Shown here: piece by piece, positions 14,897 through 30,601 of the stretch
Numbering within the stretch: the first letter of the stretch is position 1
Layout: the number at the start of each line of letters is the position of its first letter
NCBI GenBank assembly: GCA_016840085.1
Contig: JAEOTA010000088.1
Coordinates: 1-64,000, forward strand
Reading direction: 5' to 3'
DNA length: 64,000 nucleotides
From: Promethearchaeota archaeon
GTDB taxonomy: Archaea > Asgardarchaeota > Lokiarchaeia > Sigyniarchaeales > SOKP01
Notes under the pieces: generated by a model
Databases searched by the model: none
Told to the model about the DNA's origin: nothing
Seen by the model: the letters and a program-made list of their open reading frames with translations, nothing else
Made by a program: the position numbers and the translations under genes

Positions 14897-17800
14897 TTGA
14901 CTTATATTAAGAAAATTTCTATGACGGGATTCAAATCATTTGGAGACCGTACTGTAACAATCAAACTTTCAAGTGGCTTTACTTGTATCGTAGGCCCAAA
15001 TGGAGCCGGTAAATCTAATATTATAGATGCGCTATGCTTCGCTTTAGGTAGATTGAGTAAAAAAACTATGAGAGCTAAGAGTTTAGAAGATTTAATATTT
15101 GCAGGTTCTAGAGGAAAAAATCCTTCTCAAAGAGCATCGGTAACAATGTATTTTGATAATTCAGAGAATGTTTTCCCAGGAGGTACAGAATCTTTTGAAA
15201 TTACTCGTGTTATAAAAAGGGGAGGGGGTGGTGGTTATAAGATGAATGGAAAAAAGTCTACTCGCCAACAGATTCTAAATGCATTAGCTGCTGCAAATAT
15301 TGATCCTGATGGTAGTAATCAATTCGTTTTACAAGGAAAAATTGTTGAATTAACACATATGAATGCGGAAGACCGAAGAAAATTTATTGAAGAACTTATA
15401 GGACTTCAAAAATATGATGAAATGAAAGATGTTACACTAAAAGAATTGGAAAAAGCAGAAAGAGATCTAGGACAGTTCGAAGCAATTTTTAATGAAGTAT
15501 CTTCTCAGCTTAAAAAAGTTGAAAAAGAAAAGAATGATGCGTTAGCGTGGAAAGAATTAGATGATCACATAAATTTTTTGAATTCACAATTAATAGCTTT
15601 AAAAATTTCAAAGTTAAGACAAGAAGAGGATGAATTAGAGAAAAAAATTGATAATTCTCTAAAAATTATCGAAGAATTGGAAGAAAAAATTGTTAGACAA
15701 GAAGATTTGCTAAAACAAGAATCACTTGTTATGGATAATATTCAAGTAACTATAAATGAAAAAGAAAAGGAGAGAGAGGAAATTACTGAAAAAATAACTC
15801 AGTTAAAGACCAAAATCTCTTCAAGTCAAACTACATTAAATCTAGCTAATAAGTCAATTGAGAAATTGACTCAAGAAATAAAAAATTTAGAAAATTTACA
15901 AATGGAGCTTGAAGAAGGGCAATCTATTGATTTTTTAATAGAAAAAGCTTCAAATGAAATTTCTGAAAATGAAAATCTTATTGAAGAATCTAAAAAGGAA
16001 ATAGAAAAAAGACAGCAAACTCAAGCTGAACTGGAGACAAAAATAAAAGATACTGATGAAGAAAAATCACAATTTAAGACTGAAATCTCAAGTGTTAAAC
16101 AAAATATATCGTCAAATAAGGCTCAAATAAAAGTTCTAAGAGAAAATATTATAAAGAATGAAGATAAGAAAACCAAATTAGAAAATGAATTGAATAAATT
16201 AAAAAGAGATGCAGAAAGCATAGATGATGCAATTGAAGATGCAAGAAAGACAGAAAAGGAAATTCGAAAACAAATTGATAATTTAAAGGTAAAAGTCTCA
16301 GAAGAAAACCAAAATAGAAAAGATTTGGAAAATAAAATAAATACACTTCAAGAAGAAAGAAATATTTTAAATGCAAATCTCGGAAATTTACAATCATCAT
16401 TATCATCTTTGAATACTGAGATTAATATGAATAACAGTAATATTCAAGATTTAAATAAGAAAAAAAATTCAATCGAGAAGAAAATTCAGGAATTAAGTAA
16501 GGGTAAAGACACTGAACAAGTTGTTAAAGAATTATTAAAAGAAAATGAAGACATTAATAAAACATTAACAGGATTAAGAGCAAAATTAAAGGAAGAAAAC
16601 TCAATTTACAAAAAAAATGAACAGAATCTAGAACTCTGGAAAATGAAAAAATATTCTATTGAGTCTGAAATTAATGATAATAAAGGAAAGATTGACAATA
16701 TTAATACTGAACTAAAAATATTTACAAAAGAATTAACTAAATTGGAAAGAGAAAAAAATAATTTAGACTCACAAGTTAATACACTTAATAAAAGTCTTTC
16801 AGATATCGAAAAGGATATAGAAAAATTTAGTTTAAAAAAAGAAAATATACGAAGGCGTTTGGAAGAACTTAAAAAAGAAAAGGAGAATCTCTTAAAAAAA
16901 ATTGAATCTTCAGAAGAAGAATACGAAAAAAATACAGAAGACATAACTGGAATCTTACAAATTTTAAACATGCTTACTCAAAACATAAATATATCAGTTG
17001 AGTCCATAAAAGGCAATATTCAACAGTCAAATGCCGAAGCAATAGAAGTATCAGCCGAAGATTTCAAAAAATTTATATTAGATATTGTAGATATAATGAA
17101 AACTATCGAAACACTCGGTAGTGATACAGAACAAACTGCCGAAATGTCAGAAATGCTCAGCTCGATAATGGAAACATTAAGTTTATTTACAGATAATGCT
17201 GATTCTACAATTAATCAACTAATTGAAAAAGTAAAAGAATCCGCTGATGTAGAAGTACAAGCATCAACTGCAACTTTTGATAGTTTTGTGCAAGATCTAA
17301 TGGAAATTCTTGAAAATGTGTATTTATCTTTAAGAAAGTTAACTATGTCTAAGAGTCAAGAACTATATAAACAATTAGAAGAAATTTCTGATACTATTAG
17401 TGCTCAAACTGATGATTTTAATGATGTTGAGAAAAAGTACACTGAAAATAATGTTCAGAATCAACATAGTACAGAAAACCTTTCAATATTTAATCGTAGA
17501 CTTGAAGAAATTAATAAAAGAATTCAAGAATTAAATACTAGAGCTGTGAAATCAGAAGAGGAAAACAATGAAAGAGATGCAAATATTAATGAAAGACAAA
17601 AAGAAATTGAAAATTTAGATGCAGATATTAAAAAACTAGTAGAACTTAAAGATACATATTGGGATAATATTTCTCAAATCCAAGATGATATCGAGAAAAA
17701 ACAAATAGAATTAGAAGCTTTGAGGGAAAAGTTACAAGAATTACATGGAATTCAAAATTTATTCGAAAACATTACTGATATTGATGAAAATATACAAAAA

Positions 17801-19351
17801 TTAAATAGTATGATCGATGAAAAGAAAAATCTGATTATTAATACTGAAAATAGTATTAAAAAAATTCAAGAAGACCAGAATTCTTTGCAAAATGAAATTG
17901 ATACTTACACTTTAAAAAAAGAAAAATTCTGGGAGATAACAGAATATATCCAGAAGCAAATTGAAGATAAAAATAGAGAATTAGAAGATACTATGGATCG
18001 TCTTAGGGCACTGGAAAATGTAATGAGAATAATCAATTCAATTGAAGATATTCAAAAGGAGAATGCAGATGCCAATAATAATATTGAAAAATGTTTGAAA
18101 GATATAGAGGTTTTTAACTCTCAGGTCGATGAAATTCAAAAAAGCGTTGATCAAAAGCAAGAAATAATAGATTCTCTTAGAAATGAAAAAACTAAAGAAT
18201 TAGAATCACAAAAAAAAGCGCAAAAGAAATTAAACAAACTGAATAAAGATTTACAGAAACAACAAGGAAATTTAAATGAGTTAAATAAGAATAAAGAAAG
18301 AGAACAGAAAATTATAGAATTAGGTGAAGAGATAAAAGACACAGAAAAACAAGTAGAATCTATATTGAAAGAATTAGAGAATTTAAAAGAAGAATTAGAT
18401 ACTGAAAATGAGAAAAAGGATACCAAACAAAAAGAAATTGATAAGTTTATTCAAGAAAAAGATGAATCGTGGAAAAAACAAAAGCAATGTCAAAAGATTA
18501 TTACAGATTTAAAATCAGATCTTTCAATGGAAAATTCTAAAAAGAATAACTTTGAATCTAAAAAAATTATATGTGCAGATCAAATAGAAACTTTATTTCA
18601 ACGATCAAAAGAATTTGGCTCATTACCAAGAGTAACTGAAGATCTTTCAGAACCAGGATTACAATCTGAAATATTAGAAGCAACCAAAAAGAAGAAAACT
18701 CTCGAACCTGTGAATTTAAAAGCTATTGAACAATATGATGCAGTAAAAGAAAGATTTGATGAAATTGATATGCGTAGACAAACAATACAGAGAGAACGAA
18801 AATCAATTTTAGATGCAATAGATAAAATAGAACTTGAAAAAACGAGAACATTCATGAAAGCATATCATGAGATTAACAGAGAATTTAGTAGGATTTTTCA
18901 AAAGCTCAGCCCTGGTGGTTCGGCTAAAATGATTTTAGATCGTCCTGATAAACCTTTTGAGGGAGGGATTAGTATTGAAGCTAGACCTCGTGGTAAAAAA
19001 ATATCAAGTTTAGAGATATTAAGTGGAGGAGAGAAGACTTTAGTTGCCTTATCTTTTATTTTTGCAGTTCAAGAATTTTACCCAGCACCTTTTTACGTTT
19101 TAGATGAGATCGATGCAGCCCTCGATGCTCCCAATGTCCATAGAGTCTCCATGTTGCTGAAGGAATTTGCCATACAAGCACAATTCTTGGTTATAAGTCA
19201 TAGGGAGGAAAATATTGTAAATGCGGATAGGATATACGGAGTATCCATGCAACAGTCGGGTATAACAGATATATTTAGTGTTGATTTGGAGGAGGAAGCA
19301 AAACGTATTTTAGAACTTGAGGATATCGAGCCCACCATTACGGAGAATTAA
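14897..19351 (+). CDS. smc: Chromosome segregation SMC ATPase (long, non-canonical hinge)
   Basis: GFKSF, GPNGAGKSN, VLQG, LSGGEK, LDEIDAALD, ISH; long coiled coils; scpA/scpB downstream. Confidence 0.93.
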   Translation: MTYIKKISMTGFKSFGDRTVTIKLSSGFTCIVGPNGAGKSNIIDALCFALGRLSKKTMRAKSLEDLIFAGSRGKNPSQRASVTMYFDNSENVFPGGTESFEITRVIKRGGGGGYKMNGKKSTRQQILNALAAANIDPDGSNQFVLQGKIVELTHMNAEDRRKFIEELIGLQKYDEMKDVTLKELEKAERDLGQFEAIFNEVSSQLKKVEKEKNDALAWKELDDHINFLNSQLIALKISKLRQEEDELEKKIDNSLKIIEELEEKIVRQEDLLKQESLVMDNIQVTINEKEKEREEITEKITQLKTKISSSQTTLNLANKSIEKLTQEIKNLENLQMELEEGQSIDFLIEKASNEISENENLIEESKKEIEKRQQTQAELETKIKDTDEEKSQFKTEISSVKQNISSNKAQIKVLRENIIKNEDKKTKLENELNKLKRDAESIDDAIEDARKTEKEIRKQIDNLKVKVSEENQNRKDLENKINTLQEERNILNANLGNLQSSLSSLNTEINMNNSNIQDLNKKKNSIEKKIQELSKGKDTEQVVKELLKENEDINKTLTGLRAKLKEENSIYKKNEQNLELWKMKKYSIESEINDNKGKIDNINTELKIFTKELTKLEREKNNLDSQVNTLNKSLSDIEKDIEKFSLKKENIRRRLEELKKEKENLLKKIESSEEEYEKNTEDITGILQILNMLTQNINISVESIKGNIQQSNAEAIEVSAEDFKKFILDIVDIMKTIETLGSDTEQTAEMSEMLSSIMETLSLFTDNADSTINQLIEKVKESADVEVQASTATFDSFVQDLMEILENVYLSLRKLTMSKSQELYKQLEEISDTISAQTDDFNDVEKKYTENNVQNQHSTENLSIFNRRLEEINKRIQELNTRAVKSEEENNERDANINERQKEIENLDADIKKLVELKDTYWDNISQIQDDIEKKQIELEALREKLQELHGIQNLFENITDIDENIQKLNSMIDEKKNLIINTENSIKKIQEDQNSLQNEIDTYTLKKEKFWEITEYIQKQIEDKNRELEDTMDRLRALENVMRIINSIEDIQKENADANNNIEKCLKDIEVFNSQVDEIQKSVDQKQEIIDSLRNEKTKELESQKKAQKKLNKLNKDLQKQQGNLNELNKNKEREQKIIELGEEIKDTEKQVESILKELENLKEELDTENEKKDTKQKEIDKFIQEKDESWKKQKQCQKIITDLKSDLSMENSKKNNFESKKIICADQIETLFQRSKEFGSLPRVTEDLSEPGLQSEILEATKKKKTLEPVNLKAIEQYDAVKERFDEIDMRRQTIQRERKSILDAIDKIELEKTRTFMKAYHEINREFSRIFQKLSPGGSAKMILDRPDKPFEGGISIEARPRGKKISSLEILSGGEKTLVALSFIFAVQEFYPAPFYVLDEIDAALDAPNVHRVSMLLKEFAIQAQFLVISHREENIVNADRIYGVSMQQSGITDIFSVDLEEEAKRILELEDIEPTITEN
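19130..19351 (+). repeat. Recoded smc 3' copy (left repeat)
   Basis: 35 of 66 identical-residue codons differ synonymously from 28401-28622. Confidence 0.9.
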
Positions 19352-19367
19352 TAAAAATGAGTTGAAT

Positions 19368-21452
19368 TTATTTTTTACAAGTGTTACACCAACTTCCTTG
19401 GTATACAGCTGCCGGGGTGGTTTCCCACACATGATTATTTTTACATTTTATTTTTATAGGTTTAAACCGTCCTTTATATGGTGTTATTAGCTGACCTCCT
19501 TTCTTACTGACAAAGATTTGAAATTTTTCAGCATATATATCCATTTTACATTTTGGACACAATATCTCAATTTTTTTATAACTTTTTTTAAGCCAATACG
19601 GTGATTTTTTAAATTTATGTCTTTTTGAACATCTATACCATAATGGTGTTTTAGCATTTATATATTCACTAATTAATTTACAACCAAATTTCTTCCCAAT
19701 CTTTCGAAAATATTCCGTTGTTCCTTTCATATTTCTAGCACACTCAGGACACCAATTATCCTGATATACAGAGTTTGGGGTAGTTTTCCACTGGTGTCCC
19801 TTCTCACACATAAGCGTTACTTCTTTTCTTGCCGAAAAATAGGGAGTCATTAGACTTCCACCTTTCTTTTCGACATATGCTCTAAATTTTTTAGCATATT
19901 TATTTTCATATATAATAAATTCTCTATAATCGTATTTGGGGATATTTTTCAGCATTTTTCCCGTTTTTCTTTCATATTCTTGTTCAATATATTTTTGCAT
20001 TTTGGTGTAGGGAAGAAGTTCATCATCGGGAATTTGAATGAGGATCACCCCATTTTTCTCGCATAATTTTAATTTAAGAGCATCTTCTTTCTGTATGTCT
20101 TTTAACTCGTCATCAGTTTTGTTAAAAGCTTTTTTACGGTGTTGAATTCCTTGATATTCAAATGCTAATCCTAAATCTTTATTATATCCGTCGAGTTCCA
20201 TTTGATTTCCCTTCTCATTAATTAGCCATTCGGGATAACTTTTTGGAAAAGGCCTTTTAAAAACCTTTTCAAAGAATTTTCGACAAATTGTCTCACTAAT
20301 GTATATGTTACAGTGTGGACACCAAGAATTAGTATAAACAACACTATTGTAAGTAGTAATAAAATGATGTCCCTCGGCACATTCAAGGTGTAGTTTCGAT
20401 TTAGCATTTTTCAAGGTTTTACTATGACATTTTCCACCTTTCTTTGCTGCAATTTTCCTTATGGTGTCTAATGAGACATGTGTCTGCGTTCGGATATATT
20501 GTTGGTATTCATTATCGGTTAATATCCTTTTTAATTGATTACGAGCAGAAGTATCGCTTAATAAGAGCCATTTTTGAATGTCGTATGCATTGTATTTTCC
20601 TGGATTTTCTAAAATGATAGACTTAACAACTTTATTTACGCAATCAGTATCTCTAATTTTTGTTGTTAAAGAAACAAAATTCGAAATTAATTTTATCTGG
20701 TTTTTAATAGCTTTGGTTTTTTCATCTTTAGACAGACTTAATAATTGTATTTGTTTTTCCTTTAAAAAGTGTATAAATGTTTTGGTCGGGCGGAAGTTTT
20801 TTAACCAATTACCAGAGCGATTGAATTCTTCAACAAGTTGCTTTATTAACGTGCTTCTATGTATGTAATATAAAAAAGTTTCAAAAAGTTCATAATCATA
20901 CCCCCATTTCATGTACTTTTCTATATAATTTTTAAAATCTTCTCCGAATATTGAAACTAAATCTTTTGTTGGAAGTTTGCTTAAGGTGAATAGAAGCGTA
21001 GCCTTATCTTCATCACTAGGCTTTTGTTTTTGAATGATTTTTAGTAATATTGATTTTTCTTTTAAGGTCAAGGTTGTATTTTTATATAAATTCTCCTTTA
21101 AAATCTCCTTTAAATTTTGAAAATCGGGATTATTTTGATTTATAATTTGTTGTAAAGCGTTTCTTTTTTTTATTTCAACCAATAGATGAGTTAATTTTTT
21201 TGCGACTCGTTTTCCTTCAGGAATTAAACTTTTTTCATAGTTTCTACTTTTATATTCCTTATAAATTGCTAGTGAACTTTTTAATTCGTTAAAAAAATCA
21301 TCAAATCTTGGATTATGTTCTTTTAATTGTTTAATTAAAAGCTTATTATTATTGGTAAACTGATGAATTAAACATTGTAGTTCTTCTTTAATTTCTTTAG
21401 AGATCTCTTGGTCTGTTGACTCCTCAATATGATTTTTCAAAAATATTGCCAT
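19368..21452 (-). CDS. Zn-ribbon repeat protein with restriction-endonuclease-like (Vsr/DUF559-type) domain
   Basis: Four C..(G)H......CxxC modules; ELDGYN..L.LAFEYQGIQH...D..K..LC..NGV.LI.IP nuclease signature. Confidence 0.75.
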   Translation of the reverse strand: MAIFLKNHIEESTDQEISKEIKEELQCLIHQFTNNNKLLIKQLKEHNPRFDDFFNELKSSLAIYKEYKSRNYEKSLIPEGKRVAKKLTHLLVEIKKRNALQQIINQNNPDFQNLKEILKENLYKNTTLTLKEKSILLKIIQKQKPSDEDKATLLFTLSKLPTKDLVSIFGEDFKNYIEKYMKWGYDYELFETFLYYIHRSTLIKQLVEEFNRSGNWLKNFRPTKTFIHFLKEKQIQLLSLSKDEKTKAIKNQIKLISNFVSLTTKIRDTDCVNKVVKSIILENPGKYNAYDIQKWLLLSDTSARNQLKRILTDNEYQQYIRTQTHVSLDTIRKIAAKKGGKCHSKTLKNAKSKLHLECAEGHHFITTYNSVVYTNSWCPHCNIYISETICRKFFEKVFKRPFPKSYPEWLINEKGNQMELDGYNKDLGLAFEYQGIQHRKKAFNKTDDELKDIQKEDALKLKLCEKNGVILIQIPDDELLPYTKMQKYIEQEYERKTGKMLKNIPKYDYREFIIYENKYAKKFRAYVEKKGGSLMTPYFSARKEVTLMCEKGHQWKTTPNSVYQDNWCPECARNMKGTTEYFRKIGKKFGCKLISEYINAKTPLWYRCSKRHKFKKSPYWLKKSYKKIEILCPKCKMDIYAEKFQIFVSKKGGQLITPYKGRFKPIKIKCKNNHVWETTPAAVYQGSWCNTCKK

Positions 21453-21459
21453 TTTAAGT

Positions 21460-21477
21460 CAAATAAATTTTTATTTG
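21460..21477. promoter_or_regulatory. Inverted repeat (possible operator) in short divergent intergenic gap
   Basis: CAAATAAA-TT-TTTATTTG between divergent starts at 21452 and 21531; AT-rich, so weak. Confidence 0.3.
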
Positions 21478-21530
21478 TCAAAACTATTTAATACGAAAGG
21501 ATAAAATTAAAGAGATAAACCTAGTAGAAA

Positions 21531-22328
21531 ATGTATTTAATTTATATAGATGAGTCTGGATCATCTACATATAAAGAAATGAATGTTGATTATACGCTTG
21601 CTTCAGTAATAATAGAAGAAAGCAATTGGCAAGCTATTAAGAATGAAATTGATCGTATTAGAATTTTATTTTTTCCAAATTTGGATCCAGATGATATAGA
21701 AATTCACACAAAAGAAATATTCCATAAACAGAATATATTTTGGTCTTTAAAGAATGATAAGAATTTTGATTTTCTAAGAGAATTGTATACAGCAATATCA
21801 AATATGGACTTAACGATAAATGCTATTCATATATTTAAGAAAAATTTAAAGAATAAACAAGATACTCACTCTTATCCAAGAAATTTCACTCCTGAAGAAA
21901 TAGCTTGGACCTTTTTAAATAATAGAGTTTCAAAATATTTAGATAAAATTATGCAAAAAAGAAAAACTGAAGGTAAACCTGCTACTTTTGGTCTTTATTT
22001 AATCGATAGAATTAATAAAAAATATGATCATAAAAGAAAGAAAAGAATTATCAAATATTTCACAACTTCTAAAATAAAAATTGGATTTTTCAAGCCTGTT
22101 TCTCCTTACATGTTGAATGATCCCGTTTTTGTAGATTCAAGTTTTCATATTTTAATACAGATTGCTGATTTAATTGCTTTTGTAATTCATCGAAAACATA
22201 ATTCAAACAATAATAGTAAGATAGATACCTATGTGGAAGAATTTTATAATTTAATAATTCCAAAATTTGATAATGATTCTTTAGATCCTTCAACATACTT
22301 AAATTATGGATTGAAATTGTATCCTTAA
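21531..22328 (+). CDS. DUF3800 family protein (RNase H-like)
   Basis: YIDESG N-terminus, EIH, FVDS....IQIADLIA C-terminus. Confidence 0.85.
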   Translation: MYLIYIDESGSSTYKEMNVDYTLASVIIEESNWQAIKNEIDRIRILFFPNLDPDDIEIHTKEIFHKQNIFWSLKNDKNFDFLRELYTAISNMDLTINAIHIFKKNLKNKQDTHSYPRNFTPEEIAWTFLNNRVSKYLDKIMQKRKTEGKPATFGLYLIDRINKKYDHKRKKRIIKYFTTSKIKIGFFKPVSPYMLNDPVFVDSSFHILIQIADLIAFVIHRKHNSNNNSKIDTYVEEFYNLIIPKFDNDSLDPSTYLNYGLKLYP

Positions 22329-22334
22329 TAAGAA

Positions 22335-22405
22335 GAGGTGAAGGTGAGTGGTGATAAACACCACGATCCCTCCACATTGATGGTGATAAACACCATCAAA
22401 ACTCA
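22335..22405 (+). ncRNA. Candidate DUF3800-associated structured RNA (twin hairpins)
   Basis: GTGGTG-ATAAA-CACCAC (22348-22364) and TTGATGGTG-ATAAA-CACCATCAA (22377-22399); GC-rich patch just after the DUF3800 stop. Confidence 0.6.
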
Positions 22406-22944
22406 TTTAATATATGGATATACATATTTATAAATTTAATCTCACAAACAAATTAGTAATTTCTTTAATTTGTATCTTTTTAATTCTAAGTCTCATGTCT
22501 TAAATATATATTTCAGAATTAAATTTTATTTTATCTTTCTACAATTTTTATCAATAAAAGGATAAAAATGTAAAGATTTTTTTTAAAGCAAAATATAATT
22601 TTTAATCAAATATCTTTTCAGAATATCAAAAATGCCGACGGAAAATTCAACCAGTTTTTAATACCATTAATAAAAAGTTAAGAAATGATTTCAATCATAT
22701 TATAAATTGAAAGTTTTTACAACCTTTATAAGCAATAATAATTTTCATGAAATTTTAACTGTAACTTCTTGAAATTTTTTAGGCATTGATGTTTTTTTTT
22801 ACAATACTAATTTGTAGATGTAGTAATAAGTCAAAAACTACTATAGAAAATTCATAGAGGATTGAGTTATAAATCAATTTATTTAGCTGGGTCTCTTAAT
22901 TTATAATAAATGTAATAGATGTAGATTATTAGTGGGTAGTTAAT

Positions 22945-23832
22945 TTGATAGAATTTAATAGAAATACGTTAGCAATAGTTATTTCAGATATACATATTGG
23001 GAATGAATCTTCCAGAATTCAAGAATTTGCAGAATTTCTTGACATTATCCTACAAAATGTAATCAATAGAAAATTACCCTTTCTTAGAACTCTAATTATC
23101 CTAGGGGACTTCTTTGACCTTCTAGCAACTAGTTTTGAAGATCTATGTTTCAATGAAAAATATTTCCAGATTTATAATGAATTAGATCAAATTAAAAATC
23201 AAAAGATAAAAGTTATCTTTGCATTAGGTAATCATGAGATTTCTACCAGTTTGTTTTACAATCTTCAATTTAAAGGGCGGAAGAAAAGCTTTTTGAGGAA
23301 ATTTGATTACTACTCATTTCCTTTCGATTTTCTCACACTAAATACAATATGTCAATATGTTATTTTAATGAATGATGATGATGATATTTATTTGGGTTTA
23401 TTGGATTCTATTCATGATGAGCCATTTATATGGCTTCATTTAGCAAAAGGATCATTTCTAAATAATGAAACTTATTTTATGTGTCATGGATACCAATTTG
23501 AGGATAAAGATACTCATCATTCGGTTACAGGTTGGTGGGATTATGCGAGAAATTTAACTGAGGGATGGAAGAAAATTATAACATCTACATGGGCAAATAT
23601 TAAAACATTATTACAACAAAGAGATACTTCAAGATTTTATGACAATATAAGTACCAGTTTAGAAAATGCTGATAACCCATATTCCCATATTATATTTGGG
23701 CATACTCATAAGTGTGAAATAAAAGATTCAAAAATATTAAATACAGGTTGCTAGCTTAAAGATTCAAATCCCAGTCATCTTGAAATTTCAATTGATGGTA
23801 GTTGTAAGTTATATGAAATAAATTTTTTATAA
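22945..23832 (+). pseudogene. Calcineurin-like metallophosphoesterase (LpxH-like) with in-frame TAG
   Basis: SDIHIG, LGDFFD, GNHE, HG, FGHTH, NTGC*; TAG at 23752-23754 sits where NTGxW Trp is expected; frame continues 25 codons to TAA 23832. Confidence 0.7.
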
Positions 23833-24046
23833 TTTTTACAATTTTTCTACCTCATTATTCTCTAATAAAAATGTATCCAAATTATCAACTTCAAAAATTC
23901 CAGAATTATTTTTTATTAAAATGTGCTCTTGAGGATTTTTGATATACTATTTTAATATTAAAGTTTTAGTATTCATGTCTTATTAAAAATTAGGGATTAT
24001 CAAGACAACCTCAGAATTAAATAAAATAGAAACATACTTTTATTTA

Positions 24047-24472
24047 ATGAAAGAAGCAGAATTAGTTGATAATTATATTATATTTAGAAAAAAGTCAGAA
24101 CCAAATATTATCATAATAAAAGAGAGAGGTTATCGACAAAAAAAAATTGATCTTATTGAAATAAACTTAAAAACAAATTTAAACTTCCATGGGGTAGAAT
24201 TCAAAATTAAGAATTGGAAACTTGGTCTAAAGCAATGTCTAGGCAATCGAATATTGGTTCCCTATAATTCTTTAGCAATATATTATAAATATGAAAAAAA
24301 TATACACATAGAAGAATTCTCCAAACATGGAATTGGTCTAATCATTATAAGTGATGATGGTTTTAGACAAAAAATACTTCCAAAAAAAAATGATCTATTA
24401 AACTATTACAAATATCATTGTATTTATGAAAAAATAAGAAACATCTTTCCAGAAACTTTAATAAATTGCTAA
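24047..24472 (+). CDS. Small PD-(D/E)XK nuclease-like protein
   Basis: MKEAEL, KIDLI, GVEFK..NWK.GL.Q, GIGLI pattern. Confidence 0.6.
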   Translation: MKEAELVDNYIIFRKKSEPNIIIIKERGYRQKKIDLIEINLKTNLNFHGVEFKIKNWKLGLKQCLGNRILVPYNSLAIYYKYEKNIHIEEFSKHGIGLIIISDDGFRQKILPKKNDLLNYYKYHCIYEKIRNIFPETLINC

Positions 24473-24530
24473 ACTCCCTATTTTTAAGATTAAAAAAAAA
24501 AAAATACTAAATAAAAACATTATTTTAAAG

Positions 24531-25874
24531 ATGGATATTTTTTATAGATTAAACTCACCAAAAGATTTAGCAGATTTGAACGATAGCTTTTCTCAAAGCC
24601 TGTGTAAAGGATTTTACTTCTTTTTAGATGATATTAAATTGCAAAACGACAAAGCAATTCCTAGTAAAAAAAATCTAACTTATCTCAAAACAGTAAAATC
24701 TCTTAAGAGAGATATAATCCTAACTTTTGATTTTAATAAAAAGTTTAGTAGACCTGATTACCATTCTCCAAGATTAAATATAAAAACAACCAAACGATTA
24801 GAAGATAGATTACAGAGAGGCTTTTCTACTAGAAGAGATGTTGAAGAAGAAAAAGAATTTTTCAATTCTATTTTAAGGAAAAACCAAGAAAAAATAGGAG
24901 AGCTAAAAAAACTTGAAAATAAAAAATATTGTATAACAATTTTTAAAGAAATTCTTGATTATTATAAGAAAGTTAAAAAATATTTAGAAGAAGAAGTAGG
25001 TTTAATGCGATTTATTCCTCACATTAGGAAGACAAATGTTATTGGGTATGAAGTACCTTTAATTGCAAATTATAAAATTGAAGAATTAAATGATCCATAT
25101 TTTCAGGTTATTCAAAATTCAATTTTTAAAATAAACAATCATCTTGTAAATTTATGCAGAAAGAGTAGTCTAGATGATTTTATATATCCATTAACAGTAA
25201 TGACTGAAGATTTACAAACGAAAAATCAATTCTTAAATACCCAAATGAACTATCTAAAGGATTTTAAAAGATTATTGATATGGGTAATTGATTCAAATGA
25301 ATTGTATAGTACCAGAAAAAATAAACAGCTATATTTTGATATTGTTCGCGAATTAAGTAAAGACCATCATATATTTATCAAGTATGTTGGAGTAAAACAG
25401 CTCCAAAAATATAAAAAAGAATTTAATGAAGCATCAATTATTTTTCGTGAAGACGCCTATTCGGGTTATAATATTAACATTCAGAGATCTGCTAAGCCAA
25501 AAAGAACTAGAAACATATTAGATCCAAAAGACATAAAACATAAGGATGATAGAGGTCTCTCGAAGGGAAATGTAAATGCCCATTTTGAATGTAGTTGTAC
25601 TATCTGTAATGCTTTTGGAATTGATACTTATAAAAAGGCGATAGATTTTTATCATGGATCTAGGATTGCTAAAGAACCCGAATTTGCTAAGGAAATTTCC
25701 CCAAAACGAGAAGTAAAAGACGAAAAAAAGTATAGACTAGAAAAAACTAAAAAACTCCAAACAAAATTTAGAAAAATACATAACTTCGAAGTAGCGGATA
25801 ATTTAATTTTTATTAAACTAAACGAATTTATAAAAAAATATCCTAAAATAGCAAATCAAATTGGGTTGAGGTGA
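24531..25874 (+). CDS. Hypothetical protein with TGT-like C-terminal zinc site
   Basis: CSCTIC followed by IHN, as in tRNA-guanine transglycosylase/DpdA zinc motif; rest unrecognised. Confidence 0.45.
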   Translation: MDIFYRLNSPKDLADLNDSFSQSLCKGFYFFLDDIKLQNDKAIPSKKNLTYLKTVKSLKRDIILTFDFNKKFSRPDYHSPRLNIKTTKRLEDRLQRGFSTRRDVEEEKEFFNSILRKNQEKIGELKKLENKKYCITIFKEILDYYKKVKKYLEEEVGLMRFIPHIRKTNVIGYEVPLIANYKIEELNDPYFQVIQNSIFKINNHLVNLCRKSSLDDFIYPLTVMTEDLQTKNQFLNTQMNYLKDFKRLLIWVIDSNELYSTRKNKQLYFDIVRELSKDHHIFIKYVGVKQLQKYKKEFNEASIIFREDAYSGYNINIQRSAKPKRTRNILDPKDIKHKDDRGLSKGNVNAHFECSCTICNAFGIDTYKKAIDFYHGSRIAKEPEFAKEISPKREVKDEKKYRLEKTKKLQTKFRKIHNFEVADNLIFIKLNEFIKKYPKIANQIGLR

Positions 25875-25877
25875 AAA

Positions 25878-27032
25878 ATGAAAAATAGAATAAATAAATT
25901 TAATGAAATAATTGAAAATGAAGAATTAGTTCTCTTGATTTTATTTTATTCAGAAAGATATTACACATTAAAGACACGCTTAGTAAAATTGTTATTTCTT
26001 TTTAAAGAAATTTTTCCGATAAACGAAGAAAATGAATTAGATTTAGATTTTTTCCCTTATAATTATGGAGCTACACTTGATTATGATGAGTATCAGTTAT
26101 TAATTAGTACATTAAAGAACTATGAATTCATTGAAGTGGAAGAACAGATATTAAAGAAATATAATAATCCATTAATTAAAATTAAAATTCACGAAGAAAA
26201 AGAAGAAGAAATAATATATATGATTAAAGAAAAGCTTATACCAGAAAAACCAATATATAAAATCGAATTAATTGAAAAAATATGTAAAACCTTCCCTAAT
26301 TTTGATAATAAAGCATTACTTCAATTTGTTTATTATATTAGAGAGGATTTTACTGAAAAAAGCAAAATAAAGGAAGAAATATTTAATTTATCTAAAACAC
26401 AAATACAAGAAAAGACTATAAATCTCTTTAAAGAGCTTCGAATACGATATTTAGATATTTTTCTTGAATACTTAGAAGGAATCTTGAAAATATTTAATAT
26501 AAGTAAAACTATAGCAGATTATCAAATCTTTAAAGAACTTTTCGCAAATTTCCATATAGGCCTAAAAACTAATTCTCTTAAAATTAATAAAAATATCATT
26601 CAAAACTTAGATCAAATGTCCTTAAAAGATAAGAAACATCATAGACTGAAATTATCACTTTTAGACATATTCCTAAAAAATCAAGGTAAGGATTGGGATA
26701 ATGAAGCTATAATTTCTATTATAATATACATATTAAAATCCTTAAGTCTTAGTTGGCCTTTAGAAAAGCCCTTAGATCGAGAGATTTTTATCTCACTAAC
26801 TTCAAAATTACTTCAAAATTATAAATCTTTTTACAAACCGGAAGATACTTTCTCAGTATTAGAAAAAACCATACCTACAGAAGAAGAAATTCAAAAATTT
26901 ATTTTAAAATATGAAAATGACTTAACTGATAGTGAGGAAAAAGAAGAAGATACTGTAAAAGATGAATTTGGTCAAGACTTTACAGAAGACGACGAATATG
27001 AGGATGATATAATTAAAAAGTCAAATTCTTAA
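25878..27032 (+). CDS. Panacea/DUF4065-like (SocA-like) wHTH protein with acidic tail
   Basis: KTRLVKLLFL...FFPYNYGA and LLQFVY motifs; GAGGTGA RBS overlaps the previous stop. Confidence 0.55.
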   Translation: MKNRINKFNEIIENEELVLLILFYSERYYTLKTRLVKLLFLFKEIFPINEENELDLDFFPYNYGATLDYDEYQLLISTLKNYEFIEVEEQILKKYNNPLIKIKIHEEKEEEIIYMIKEKLIPEKPIYKIELIEKICKTFPNFDNKALLQFVYYIREDFTEKSKIKEEIFNLSKTQIQEKTINLFKELRIRYLDIFLEYLEGILKIFNISKTIADYQIFKELFANFHIGLKTNSLKINKNIIQNLDQMSLKDKKHHRLKLSLLDIFLKNQGKDWDNEAIISIIIYILKSLSLSWPLEKPLDREIFISLTSKLLQNYKSFYKPEDTFSVLEKTIPTEEEIQKFILKYENDLTDSEEKEEDTVKDEFGQDFTEDDEYEDDIIKKSNS

Positions 27033-27039
27033 GCTTAAT

Positions 27040-27939
27040 GTGGAGAATAATAACTTGGATTTGGTATTAGATTCATCAGCATTAATAAATCTCTTTTTTG
27101 GAAGTACTAAGACTTCTAAAAATATCCAGAAAATTATTTCATATTATGAAAATATTTGTATTACTAATATAGTTCGGTATGAATTTCGAAACTACTTTTT
27201 AGATTTCTTCCGTTTCCTAGAAATCTATAAATCAATAATAAAAGATTTCCAAGAAAATAAAATTATTATACATAAAATCTTTCCTGACTTATTAGAAGAA
27301 CTTTCTCGAATATATCACCGAAAATCACAGCGTTTTGGTAGGATAAGAATAATCTATGAAGGAGTACTAGAAAAATATCAAAAAAGGATCTTAGAAACCA
27401 TGATTAAAGGTTTACAAAATTGTGAAGATATAAAGCAAATTCTAATAGACCGGTTAAAAACTGTAATCTGGGACTATCAGATAAAATTAAAAATTGTTTA
27501 TGAAACTCTTACAAATTATATTGTAATAAAAGACTTTGATTGTAGTTTATGTAATTGGAAATACTTTTATGATGCAAATATAGATGAATTTATTATAAAT
27601 GAAAAAAGAGTATGTTCAAGGATTTGTTTCAATATTAAGGAAAAGTTATCATATTTCGCTAATGAAAATCAAACTTTTATTGACTTAATTTTGGAAAATT
27701 ATATTAAATTAAGTAAAGAAAGAAAAATAATGAATTATGATAAAAATCTTATTCCATCTTTGCAAAAAATTATAAATAATAAAAATGCACATATTGGAGT
27801 TAAAGATTGTAAAAGCTTAGGTGACTTTTTTATTTCATCAATTGTAGATGATAATCGGCACATTTTAACTAATAATAAAAACCATTTTTTATTATTATTA
27901 CTTTGTAAAAATAGAGAGAATTCTTTGATCTTATTCTAA
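27040..27939 (+). CDS. PIN-domain protein
   Basis: LVLDSSALI, VRYEF, LGDFFI, ILTNNKNHF PIN motifs with large insertion. Confidence 0.65.
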   Translation: MENNNLDLVLDSSALINLFFGSTKTSKNIQKIISYYENICITNIVRYEFRNYFLDFFRFLEIYKSIIKDFQENKIIIHKIFPDLLEELSRIYHRKSQRFGRIRIIYEGVLEKYQKRILETMIKGLQNCEDIKQILIDRLKTVIWDYQIKLKIVYETLTNYIVIKDFDCSLCNWKYFYDANIDEFIINEKRVCSRICFNIKEKLSYFANENQTFIDLILENYIKLSKERKIMNYDKNLIPSLQKIINNKNAHIGVKDCKSLGDFFISSIVDDNRHILTNNKNHFLLLLLCKNRENSLILF

Positions 27940-28391
27940 TAAAAAAAAGATTACTGAATCTTAAATATATTAATTAAAATTATTTCTTCATACTATATTA
28001 ATTCATTTTCTACTTTCTTGCAGAATTTGAAGGTAGATTTACAAACATAATTTAAAGATCCTAAATAAAATCTATTCAATTTTTCATTTTTCTGTTTTAA
28101 TTATGAGAATATTCACTAAATTAGATTTATAAAAGTGAGGAAATCAAGTATTTCCAAGTAATTATCCATCTTAAGTAATATAGTGAATTTAGTAAAAATT
28201 AGAATATATTTAATCCAATATAAATATCAAAAAAATACAATAAATTATATAGATTTTCACTTAGTTTAACTCTCTAGTATGGATTATTAATATTTTTTAG
28301 GATGAAATCCTATCATCATATTATAGCTAAATAAAATAAAAGAATAAAGTATAATTTATCATAGATAATAATTTTATTTAAACAAATCAAT

Positions 28392-28622
28392 ATGAGTAGC
28401 CCAAATGTTCATCGTGTAAGTACAGTAATACAAGATTTTGCTTCACAGGCTCAATTCCTCGTAATAAGCCATAGAGAAGAAAATATCGTAAATGCAGACC
28501 GCATATACGGAGTTTCCATGCAACAAAGTGGAATAACTGACATTTTTAGTGTTGATTTAGAGGAAGAGGCTAAACGTCTCTTAGAGCTTGAAGATATTGA
28601 GCCTACTATTACAGAAAATTAA
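28392..28622 (+). pseudogene. Orphaned smc 3' end (76-aa ORF)
   Basis: PNVHRVS...ISHREE...EDIEPTITEN duplicates the SMC C-terminus; directly upstream of scpA. Confidence 0.85.
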
Positions 28623-28653
28623 ATATGAAATATAGTTGAAATGGTGAATAATT

Positions 28654-29652
28654 ATATCAGAAGACCAAAAGTCAGAGAAAGAATATAATTTTATCCAGTG
28701 GACAGTAAAAGAATTAAGGGAGTTTGCCTCCAAAAACAATATAAAAGTTCCTTCAAAATCTAAAAAGAATGATATAATTGAATTATTAAAAAAAATTGTG
28801 TCTCATCCTGAATTTGTTGATCGATCTGAAGAACCAGAAGAATTGGAAGAAGAACTTATAGCTGATTTTGATGAAGAGGAAGATCTTGCTTTATTAAGGA
28901 AAGAAAAAATAGACCTGAAATTTTGGCAAAAACCACCTTTTTCAAGTTTATTAGATACAGAACTAGCAAAAGAATCAGATATAGCATTTTATGATTTAGC
29001 TAGTCTAGTTGATAAATTTTTCGATAAAATGCTTCACGAAGATTTAATTAACTATAAGATCTCTGGAATTGCATTGAAGACTTCAGCATCATTACATCAT
29101 TATAAAATTACTAGTATAATAAAAGAAGAAGAACAAATACAGAAAAAGGAAGAATTAGAACGATTTCGACAAAGACATGGGAGATCTATACCAAAAGCTT
29201 TACCCCAACCAATACAACCTAAAATGCTAATTGCTACAAAGGAGGAATTATTCGATGCTATGAGATCTGCTATAATAGAAGTAATGCAAAGCAAAGAAAA
29301 ATTAAAAAGAAGGAGGATGCGAAAAGAAGAATTGAAACAACAGAGAATACAACTGAGATCAAAAGCTCAATTACCCAGAGAACTGTTAAAACATATTAGT
29401 GGAAAAGATCAGACCATTAAAGAGCTTCATAATTCATGGCATAATCGGATAAAAGCCACAATTAATTTAGATAATAAAGAAACTAGTTTCTTTGATTTAA
29501 CAAATATTATTAAAGATGAAGAAGAAAGTAGTATTGGTAGGAAATTTGCTTTAGTAAGAATGTTTTTAGCTCTAATGTTTTTATCCACAGGAGGCAAATT
29601 AAATTTGTCTCAAGATGAAGATTTTAAGAATATATCTGTAGATATAAAATAA
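28654..29652 (+). CDS. scpA: Kleisin ScpA with N-terminal SAP/HeH-like module
   Basis: DLASLVDKFF..M....NYKISGIAL N-kleisin, FLALMFL...GKLNLSQDEDF..I C-kleisin; frame opens at 28648, GGTGA RBS 28643-28647, probable ATA start upstream of the called GTG 28798. Confidence 0.8.
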   Translation: MSEDQKSEKEYNFIQWTVKELREFASKNNIKVPSKSKKNDIIELLKKIVSHPEFVDRSEEPEELEEELIADFDEEEDLALLRKEKIDLKFWQKPPFSSLLDTELAKESDIAFYDLASLVDKFFDKMLHEDLINYKISGIALKTSASLHHYKITSIIKEEEQIQKKEELERFRQRHGRSIPKALPQPIQPKMLIATKEELFDAMRSAIIEVMQSKEKLKRRRMRKEELKQQRIQLRSKAQLPRELLKHISGKDQTIKELHNSWHNRIKATINLDNKETSFFDLTNIIKDEEESSIGRKFALVRMFLALMFLSTGGKLNLSQDEDFKNISVDIK

Positions 29653-29680
29653 AAAAATTAAGGACAAATTTTAAAATCTC

Positions 29681-30601
29681 ATGAATAATATTAATGAAAA
29701 TTTAAAAGAAAATCCAGAGGGAGAATCCCAGGAAGATATTGAAGAAATCTCTGAAGTTGTCTCAAATGAAGAGAGTGAATCAGAAGACTCTAAGGAAAAT
29801 AGTCAACAAATTGAAGAAGTCTCTGTCGATGAAGTAAGTGAAGAAGAATTCGGTGTTGATGACAAAAGAGCTATTATAGAAGAAACAGATGGGGATGTTG
29901 AATTTGAATCTATAGAGCGTGAAAAGATAGAAGATATTGATGAAACGGTTGAAGACAAACCTTTAGAGAGTGAATCAATAGAAGAAATATCATTAGAAGA
30001 ACAGCTAAGAGAATTTGATAGGAACTTAATTGAAGCTTCATTATATGCTGCAGGCAGACCTTTAACAATCGAAGAAATTTCAAATAAGTTAGAAATATCT
30101 AAAAAAAAAGTAGAAGAATTAATCAATGAGGTTGCTTTTGATTATCTAGAACGCTCAACAGCATTAGTTATAGCCCAAATAGGGGATAGATATCAGATGC
30201 AGATTAAACCAGAATATACTGAAAAAGTATCAAAATTTGCTAAAGGAGGAGCTATTGCTGAGCGGTATTTAAGAACCTTAACGATTATTGCTTTAAAACA
30301 GCCAATCTTAAAATCAAGTGTGATCAAATTAAGAGGTACTGGAGCATATGAACATGTAAAATATCTTATTGATAATGGATTTATAGATGCCGTCAAAAAA
30401 GGAAGAACTCATGAGTTAACAACGACAGATAAATATTCGGATATGTTTGGACTACCAAAAGATAAGACTGAATTGAAACGTGTTATGATTAAACAATTAG
30501 GTGTAGAAGAAGTTGCAAGTATTGAACAACCAGAAGTAATCGAAGAAGAAGAAATTGTAGAAAAAGAAAGCCTGGAAAAAGAAAATTTGGAACAAGAATA
30601 A
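29681..30601 (+). CDS. scpB: SMC-Scp complex subunit ScpB with acidic N-terminal extension
   Basis: IEASLYAAGRPL, LRTLTIIALKQPI, RG..AYEHVKYL, TT.KY...FGL. Confidence 0.92.
   Translation: MNNINENLKENPEGESQEDIEEISEVVSNEESESEDSKENSQQIEEVSVDEVSEEEFGVDDKRAIIEETDGDVEFESIEREKIEDIDETVEDKPLESESIEEISLEEQLREFDRNLIEASLYAAGRPLTIEEISNKLEISKKKVEELINEVAFDYLERSTALVIAQIGDRYQMQIKPEYTEKVSKFAKGGAIAERYLRTLTIIALKQPILKSSVIKLRGTGAYEHVKYLIDNGFIDAVKKGRTHELTTTDKYSDMFGLPKDKTELKRVMIKQLGVEEVASIEQPEVIEEEEIVEKESLEKENLEQE

Follow-up and report, generated by a model that had tools for sequence, protein, structure and literature searches.

The replacement of a gene tail by an endonuclease gene has so far been described mainly in fungal mitochondria and phages. 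Mobile open reading frames (mORFs) of fungal mitochondria make gene hybrids in atp6 of Allomyces macrogynus and in atp6, atp9, cox2 and nad3 of Glomus (PMC3630166), and atp6 and cox2 hybrids occur in Phlebia mitochondria (PMC4019555). Here, we describe an island at the 3' end of smc in a 64,000-nt stretch (hereafter the window) of contig JAEOTA010000088.1 from a Promethearchaeota archaeon, where comparison with relatives indicates that a gene, probably a selfish DNA-cutting one, has entered the end of smc repeatedly in Loki-type Asgard archaea. As in the mORF hybrids, an in-frame foreign C-terminus is accompanied by an endonuclease gene with no self-splicing element, and the native C-terminus is displaced downstream and matches those of close relatives. 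The mORF-type features (a foreign in-frame C-terminus, a native displaced tail, a nuclease ORF between the tails and empty alleles) are all present at smc. Unlike the mORFs, which are mitochondrial and encode LAGLIDADG or GIY-YIG enzymes, the smc island lies in an archaeal chromosome and encodes an EDxHD/Vsr zinc-ribbon enzyme. It also differs in the convergent orientation of the nuclease, in a variable cargo of 2-17 kb and in a right end placed before the interrupted scpAB, and its mobility is one that we infer.

Integrative elements such as e14 and phage 21 in icd restore the 3' end of their target. They resemble the smc island in the replacement 3' end, the displaced original and the variable cargo, whereas the smc island has no integrase and no att core, and its breakpoints vary. 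In Rhs and type VI secretion system (T6SS) arrays, C-termini are displaced by homology-facilitated illegitimate recombination (PMC5361080), and orphan 3' ends lie downstream of the new DNA as at smc; in contrast, the SMC protein is conserved rather than diversified, and one nuclease is invariably linked to it. T4-like phages carry free-standing homing endonucleases, the mobE and seg genes (PMC2790892). The smc island resembles T4 homing in an intergenic nuclease, a target in a neighbouring conserved gene, co-conversion of the flank and mobilised passengers, and this scheme fits the loci that have no remnant of the displaced tail. It differs in the cellular chromosome, the duplicated target tail and a cargo far beyond the 2 kb of co-conversion reported for T4. 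Two traits of homing endonucleases, patchy presence (nine changes) and variable co-conversion tracts, are both present at smc. The smc nuclease shares the catalytic fold, the residues E, D, H and D and a D-to-H spacing of 17 with the EDxHD family (I-Bth0305I; PMC3239194). Unlike I-Bth0305I, it lacks NUMOD repeats and has five DUF4379/CapR-like zinc ribbons flanking the catalytic domain, and no intron or intein is involved.

Relative to the known systems, the new features are the location in an archaeal chromosome, the zinc-ribbon architecture of the enzyme, the cargo and the conservation of the right end. An earlier reading of the window made from the letters alone (the sequence-only reading) had not recognised the element as described, and our literature search, mostly covering papers readable without subscription, likewise gave no account of it in Asgard archaea; the preprint 10.1101/2025.07.27.667033 does not mention smc. 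If our interpretation is true, a homing endonuclease drives an island with cargo in the cellular chromosome of an archaeon, and this route of gene gain is overlooked by integrase-based island finders. It would also imply that DNA often passes between Loki-type species that differ by 5-25% in sequence and is used there in the repair of double-strand breaks, which bears on Asgard gene exchange. The smc 3' end is an unsafe phylogenetic marker in this group. The enzyme with its predicted site is directly testable, and dozens of natural candidate sensitive and resistant substrates are at hand.

The smc 3' end is present twice, at 19130-19351 and 28401-28622, with an ungapped offset of 9,271 bp in the window alignment. 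G000 denotes the genome holding the window, other G numbers denote genomes of relatives, and L numbers denote fetched loci. A site is called occupied when it holds the island, and the displaced tail is called the remnant; GC3 is the G+C fraction at third codon positions. The two tails and the gene next to the first one are as follows.

14897..19351, + strand: smc, 1484 aa, a hybrid of host body and foreign 3' end (NCBIfam SMC_prok_A/B, E<1e-180); sole full copy in the genome
19000..19351, + strand: foreign (converted) smc tract, from the ABC signature to the stop; left edge at ~19000-19110, placed by divergence and the GC3 rise
19127..19144, + strand: predicted cleavage/recognition region, G/A-P-N-V-H-R after the D-loop; proposed because five remnants start here and occupied alleles are changed here
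19130..19351, + strand: in-use smc tail, 73 codons, element-borne; its nearest tails come from unrelated hosts, not from relatives of the host
19368..21452, - strand: nuclease, 694 aa, with an N-terminal module (aa 1-188), a helical/HTH-like part, a Vsr/EDxHD-type catalytic domain and five zinc-ribbon repeats
19959..20306, - strand: catalytic domain of the nuclease; E-D-H-D invariant in 24 homologues, fold match to 3r3p
28392..28622, + strand: displaced original smc tail, 76-aa ORF with homology from 28401; groups with the tail of the body-sister G024

The two tails of 73 codons share 66 identical residues, with seven replacements and 35 synonymous differences, and Ser codon-family switches are located at 19148 and 19256 and Arg switches at 19142 and 19229. 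The DNA identity is 75%, and the longest identical run is 14 nt. These values reproduce the sequence-only reading, which had reported a 73-codon repeat 9.27 kb apart with 66/73 identical residues, 35 codon changes, two Ser and two Arg switches and a longest perfect match of ~14 nt. The downstream copy, which has its own ATG at 28392, was matched at E = 1e-34 by tblastn against the G000 genome; no second full smc of the same type and no paralogue body were found in this genome. Contigs from the public run X1 (Logan) span 19050-21106, covering the left junction, and 21411-30376, covering the cargo, the right end, the remnant and scpA-scpB, with zero differences and even depth; the runs with bridging contigs belong to one study and may derive from the same sample as the source. 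Misassembly and the remnant of a full smc paralogue had been named as possible refutations. The genome bin has 7.6% contamination, which would favour an artefact. Misassembly is excluded because separate contigs bridge both junctions and the same layout recurs in other species, and the paralogue explanation is contradicted by the lack of a paralogue body in the genome. The probability that we leave to either of them is negligible.

According to the tree of both tails, a check that the sequence-only reading had named, the remnants of G000, G008, G043 and G069 (four of the five remnants) group with the body-sisters of their hosts with strong support, and the in-use tails do not. The downstream tail of G000 groups with the tail of its body-sister G024 (support 100/98). 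Compared with the tail of the empty-site sister G057, the G043 remnant is 98% identical and the in-use tail of G043 is 74% identical. Occupancy corresponds to nine changes on the smc-body tree, seven of which are forced by strong branches; the metagenome rows in this tree were chosen because they are occupied. As the remnants group with the body-sisters and occupancy changed nine times, the downstream copy is that of the host, and the hosts were invaded separately. The earlier view that the downstream copy is the original thus agrees with the positions of the G000 and G043 remnants, and the view that the functional SMC ends in element-derived DNA agrees with the tails nearest to the in-use one, which belong to unrelated hosts. 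With a support of 97/100, the 'original' tail of G000 and G024 itself clusters with the tails carried by the elements of G008 and G012, which suggests that this lineage had an earlier round of tail replacement.

In the survey of the genus, the smc tail was recovered from 44 of 54 genomes. The site is empty in 33 of the 44, where scpA directly follows smc, and occupied in nine (G000, G004, G008, G012, G023, G043, G048, G062 and G069); of the other two, G057 has a split at the site and G053 a rearrangement. An smc-specific hotspot with empty sites, as supposed earlier, is supported by these counts, and the opposite case, in which all relatives carry the same arrangement with no empty site, is not what the genus shows. 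Other cargo at the same codon had also been proposed as a check: the inserts differ between relatives, and five remnants start at the same codon (N-V-H-R). Where a single contig holds both tails, the inserts are 6.8, 9.3, 13.5 and 17.5 kb. Minimal loci have inserts of 2-5 kb, of which L109 and L144 contain little besides the nuclease, and G023 has 37 kb up to scpA. The cargo varies widely between occupied loci. None of the other fetched smc islands holds a homologue of the six cargo genes of the window, and a three-gene block is common to G004, G012 and two further loci.

The nuclease is the sole constant gene of the occupied loci. It is convergent with the smc stop in every occupied locus, in one case one gene away, and lies directly behind smc in nine congeneric genomes and in five genomes of three other genera. 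Members of its clade are 56-78% identical and were found behind smc in 8/8 homologue contigs checked, three of which are probably the organisms G069, G138 and G092. The taxon labels of the homologues point to a host among the Promethearchaeota/Lokiarchaeia. Among the order-wide matches with readable context, the clade never occurs away from smc, and it is found in four genera of the family. The suggestion that the element is decayed is at variance with this intact and conserved gene.

The core of the nuclease consists of the helical part, the catalytic domain and the five zinc ribbons, and the N-terminal module (aa 1-188) is swappable between homologues. In the model built from 24 homologues (pLDDT 84), the best fold match of the catalytic domain is I-Bth0305I (3r3p; Z 8.5, rmsd 3.2, 98/98 residues aligned), and the match to Vsr (1cw0) has a Z of 7.9. 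The core residues E199, D233, H250 and D269 are invariant in the 24 homologues and fit the EDxHD motif (PMC3239194), mapped onto I-Bth0305I by motif and spacing. No match at E<=0.001 was obtained by Foldseek with both nuclease models, and none by sequence search of the PDB. The ESM Atlas gave no usable match in a feature search with the helical part, and its shape search gave only DUF4379/CapR zinc-ribbon clusters with TM<=0.35. The G012 nuclease is different, with 863 aa, the same broad type and 27-30% identity to the smc nuclease clade.

The foreign stretch begins upstream of the duplicated part. The divergence from G067 jumps from 3% to 21% at 18994, that from G024 jumps from 10% to 24% at 19006, and GC3 rises from ~19100. 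The left edge is thus located at ~19000-19110, and the replaced stretch exceeds the duplicated stretch. In close pairs, the left edge lies between codons -82 and -33, counted from the GVSMQ anchor, and the onset of divergence varies, lying 0-47 codons upstream of the junction. In the G008 and G000 remnants, the initial 12-24 codons diverge more than the rest. The variable left edges and the diverged remnant starts indicate recombination tracts rather than a crossover at a fixed position.

All 38 empty alleles have Pro and Val at the junction, but these residues are changed in 5 of the 15 occupied rows. CGN is the Arg codon there in 21/38 empty alleles and 0/15 occupied ones, which have AGR; these differences are correlational, the rows are not independent, and G141 is one probable CGN exception. 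Tracts over the junction also separate empty sisters. G005 and G045 are 98-99% identical in the body and 70-83% across the junction, and G019/G022 and G056/G057 behave likewise, whereas the control pairs G001/G051, G020/G046 and G006/G009 have no such tract. The nearest relative, G067, has an element-type tail without the island. In G012, the junction lies 32 codons further downstream, at D-R-I-Y, with the right-end motif kept. The contig break of G057 (L052/L053), with a 77-nt overlap, starts exactly on the junction base of G012 (L034), and the G057 population possibly held both empty and occupied alleles.

From the architecture, the linkage, the native remnant, the foreign tail, the variable breakpoints, the fold and the catalytic residues, we consider it likely that a free-standing homing endonuclease cuts the empty smc allele near G-P-N-V-H-R and that homologous repair then copies the island in. 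The EDxHD/Vsr-type zinc-ribbon nuclease would cut at these codons, and the break would be repaired from an occupied donor chromosome, reached by a presumed transfer of donor DNA. The left end would recombine in smc upstream of the cut, with co-conversion of a stretch of variable length, and the right end in the displaced tail of the donor, or in scpA when the remnant is missing. The recipient would acquire the donor tail, the nuclease, the cargo behind the nuclease and the right end, and its own tail would mostly be kept as the new remnant. The diverged tail would keep SMC functional and presumably resist cutting. Repair through the in-use tail of the donor, or later recombination between the tails, could leave an empty site with a foreign-type tail. 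Loci without a remnant (G023, L105, L109 and L144) would be consistent with simple intronless homing of the T4 kind (PMC2790892). Homing appears to be the simplest account of the data. A wider proposal, to which we give an even chance, is that integrase-free Asgard islands are driven by homing: an EDxHD nuclease would cut an essential gene, the displaced tail would serve as a self-renewing homology arm at the cut, 5-17 kb of cargo would be copied between species, and at least two nuclease types would have made the SMC ATPase head a mosaic family-wide, also in element-free genomes.

The sequence-only reading had regarded the in-use tail as heavily recoded. The two tails have identical codons at 30 of 65 degenerate positions, whereas independent draws from the codon usage of the host would give 32.2 (z -0.6), and tails from other genera show the same codon identity. 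The comparison indicates that the tail is a foreign allele which has diverged to saturation under purifying selection. By the NG86 method, pS is 0.85 and pN is 0.095, and the dN/dS ratio suggested earlier as a check is uninformative since dS is saturated. GC3 is 0.41 in the in-use tail, 0.17 in the smc body and 0.23 in the nuclease gene, and the shift between smc tail and body is the largest among 1809 long ORFs of G000. As the adjacent nuclease gene has a GC3 of 0.23, a GC-rich donor alone is insufficient for the shift. It is plausible that selection has acted away from host-preferred codons, either for immunity or to keep the tail from collapsing with the remnant. The shift from host-preferred codons thus stands, and the claim of recoding was overstated.

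Several observations weigh against homing. Many occupied alleles retain G-P-N-V-H-R, and G092 carries this nuclease clade (split) with a remnant starting at N-A-D-R-I-Y. The occupied loci G023, L105, L109 and L144 lack both remnant and right end. The fixed right junction could be inherited from one old insertion spread by ordinary recombination. The fold match to I-Bth0305I is tied with that to Vsr, and the modelled common fold would show no function. Nuclease distances correlate with those of the host smc body at r 0.61 and with those of the tails at r 0.43 (Mantel). At least nine other loci of G000 have tail duplications bracketing genes that the smc nuclease profile does not match, so the architecture alone needs no nuclease. 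These last points favour a passive displacement, in which foreign DNA of a relative was anchored by homology in the conserved smc head and joined illegitimately at its other end, the cassette was spread by homologous recombination between conserved flanks, and the nuclease was kept for defence or addiction. The same mechanism has been proposed for orphan Rhs/T6SS 3' ends (PMC5361080), the synonymous divergence is not beyond saturation, defence-like DUF3800 and PIN proteins are part of the cargo, and the nuclease tracks the host body at least as well as the tail. However, passive displacement leaves unexplained why one nuclease clade occurs only behind smc in four genera despite complete cargo turnover, why a second nuclease type with a junction of its own is found in this gene, why conversion tracts span the junction in empty alleles and why the substitutions of occupied alleles are centred there. 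We regard it as unlikely, though the strongest competitor of homing.

The remaining features of the island and the genes behind it are as follows.

21531..22328, + strand: DUF3800 protein, cargo (Pfam PF12686, E 6.5e-15)
22945..23754, + strand: calcineurin-like metallophosphoesterase, cargo (Pfam PF00149, E 1.2e-11)
24047..27032, + strand: three cargo ORFs of 141, 447 and 384 aa, with no family matches
27040..27939, + strand: PIN-like protein, cargo (Pfam PIN, E 0.0025, under the curated cut-off)
28271..28400, + strand: conserved non-coding right end, ~110-130 nt, ending in a start codon; common to G000, G004, G008, G043 and G069, and partly to G012
28654..29652, + strand: scpA-like kleisin, which follows smc in 33 empty-site genomes (Rad21_Rec8, weak match, E 0.087)
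29681..30601, + strand: scpB (Pfam SMC_ScpB, E 3.5e-34)

The right end matches once in the G000 genome and contains short dyads. Its fixed junction and conserved non-coding sequence would suit an integrase-type island as in e14 and phage 21, which XerA or some other recombinase acting at the right end would mobilise in trans, with attP providing the tail. The sequence-only reading had drawn this comparison and had seen neither an integrase nor a long att core. Indeed, no tyrosine recombinase (PF00589) is present inside the five resolved islands, serine recombinase profiles not having been run, and the left and right junctions share no core. In the search of the rest of the genome that it had suggested, each of the five genomes has at least one tyrosine recombinase, which speaks for mobilisation in trans; all these matches are on contigs other than those of the islands. 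The variable start of divergence, 0-47 codons upstream of the junction, and the elements without a right end also argue against it. A look for excised circles had been proposed; no joint for an empty or excised smc site was found in four contig sets, where contigs show presence only. We consider integration of this type very improbable. A Tn7-like element was rejected, as general family scans of the window island ORFs gave no TnsA/B/C or TniQ matches and no terminal repeats were found at the island. No Rfam match was obtained in the island region.

The right end is possibly a replacement promoter for scpA-scpB; a sigma-70 scan of it, with a model unsuited to archaea, remained at chance level. 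An ATG/GTG/TTG call places the scpA start at 28798, whereas the frame and a GGTGA motif point to an ATA at 28654, and relatives have ATA or ATT at this position. Thus, scpA probably starts at the ATA, and standard callers shorten it by ~48 codons. Within the cargo, the N-terminal pattern of the 384-aa ORF, which has no Pfam match, resembles that of SocA/DUF4065 antitoxins, and this ORF and the following PIN-like gene (25878-27939) are a possible toxin-antitoxin pair. PADLOC gave no defence-system match with the island proteins.

The leader of the nuclease (aa 1-188; 20889-21452) is ~70% identical in four other G000 genes (L148-L151). These genes end in different nuclease-like domains, with a double HNH on C86, and some are giant with acidic repeats. 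In G069 (L050:5559-12726), a 1461-aa form of the nuclease has the same orientation as a HerA/DUF87-like ATPase and a membrane protein; homologues of the ATPase also occur in the G023 insert (L100:18036-19829 and L101:1-1759). The shared leader with different nuclease-like ends and the co-oriented G069 genes are what would be expected if the nuclease were a delivered effector of the polymorphic-toxin type, whose place behind smc is historical; delivery and homing could also be combined. However, the leader is missing or different in most smc-linked homologues, an adjacent immunity gene is not conserved, the five zinc ribbons suggest a long DNA target, and the tail swap is left unexplained. An effector role of this kind has little probability.

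Other inserts and nucleases were also noticed. In other genera, smc and scpA are separated by 1.7-5 kb of genes at L127, L147, L165, L166 and L169. These inserts contain no nuclease and no remnant, often follow an element-type smc tail and are possible relics. In G069 (L050/L051), the left and right halves of the element are on separate contigs, each beside host genes, which suggests that a rearrangement separated smc from scpAB. Nucleases of this type at C60:39066-42042 and C35:47987-50110 of G000 are convergent with a RuBisCO-like or CooC-like gene; the neighbour genes of these two have no duplicated tail, and the smc nuclease of G012 is most closely related to the C60 nuclease. At C82:51460-55154 (L142), a paralogous nuclease lies between MoxR and vWA genes, and the first 21 vWA codons are duplicated (86%); this locus is a 5'-end version of the smc tail arrangement.

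Displaced tails in G000 are located at C19:37536-42225, C35:14849-17766, C40:36837-40247, C46:89461-93471, C47:362-18760, C74:7255-16377, C82:60090-63232, C83:80109-82891 and C85:89919-96293 (including L134-L139). The genes concerned include ahcY and GluRS-like, tryptophanase-like, DUF166 and PyrK-like genes, and the 3' copies are 72-89% identical and lie 1.5-16 kb downstream. It seems that G000 has commonly gained genes by tail displacement.

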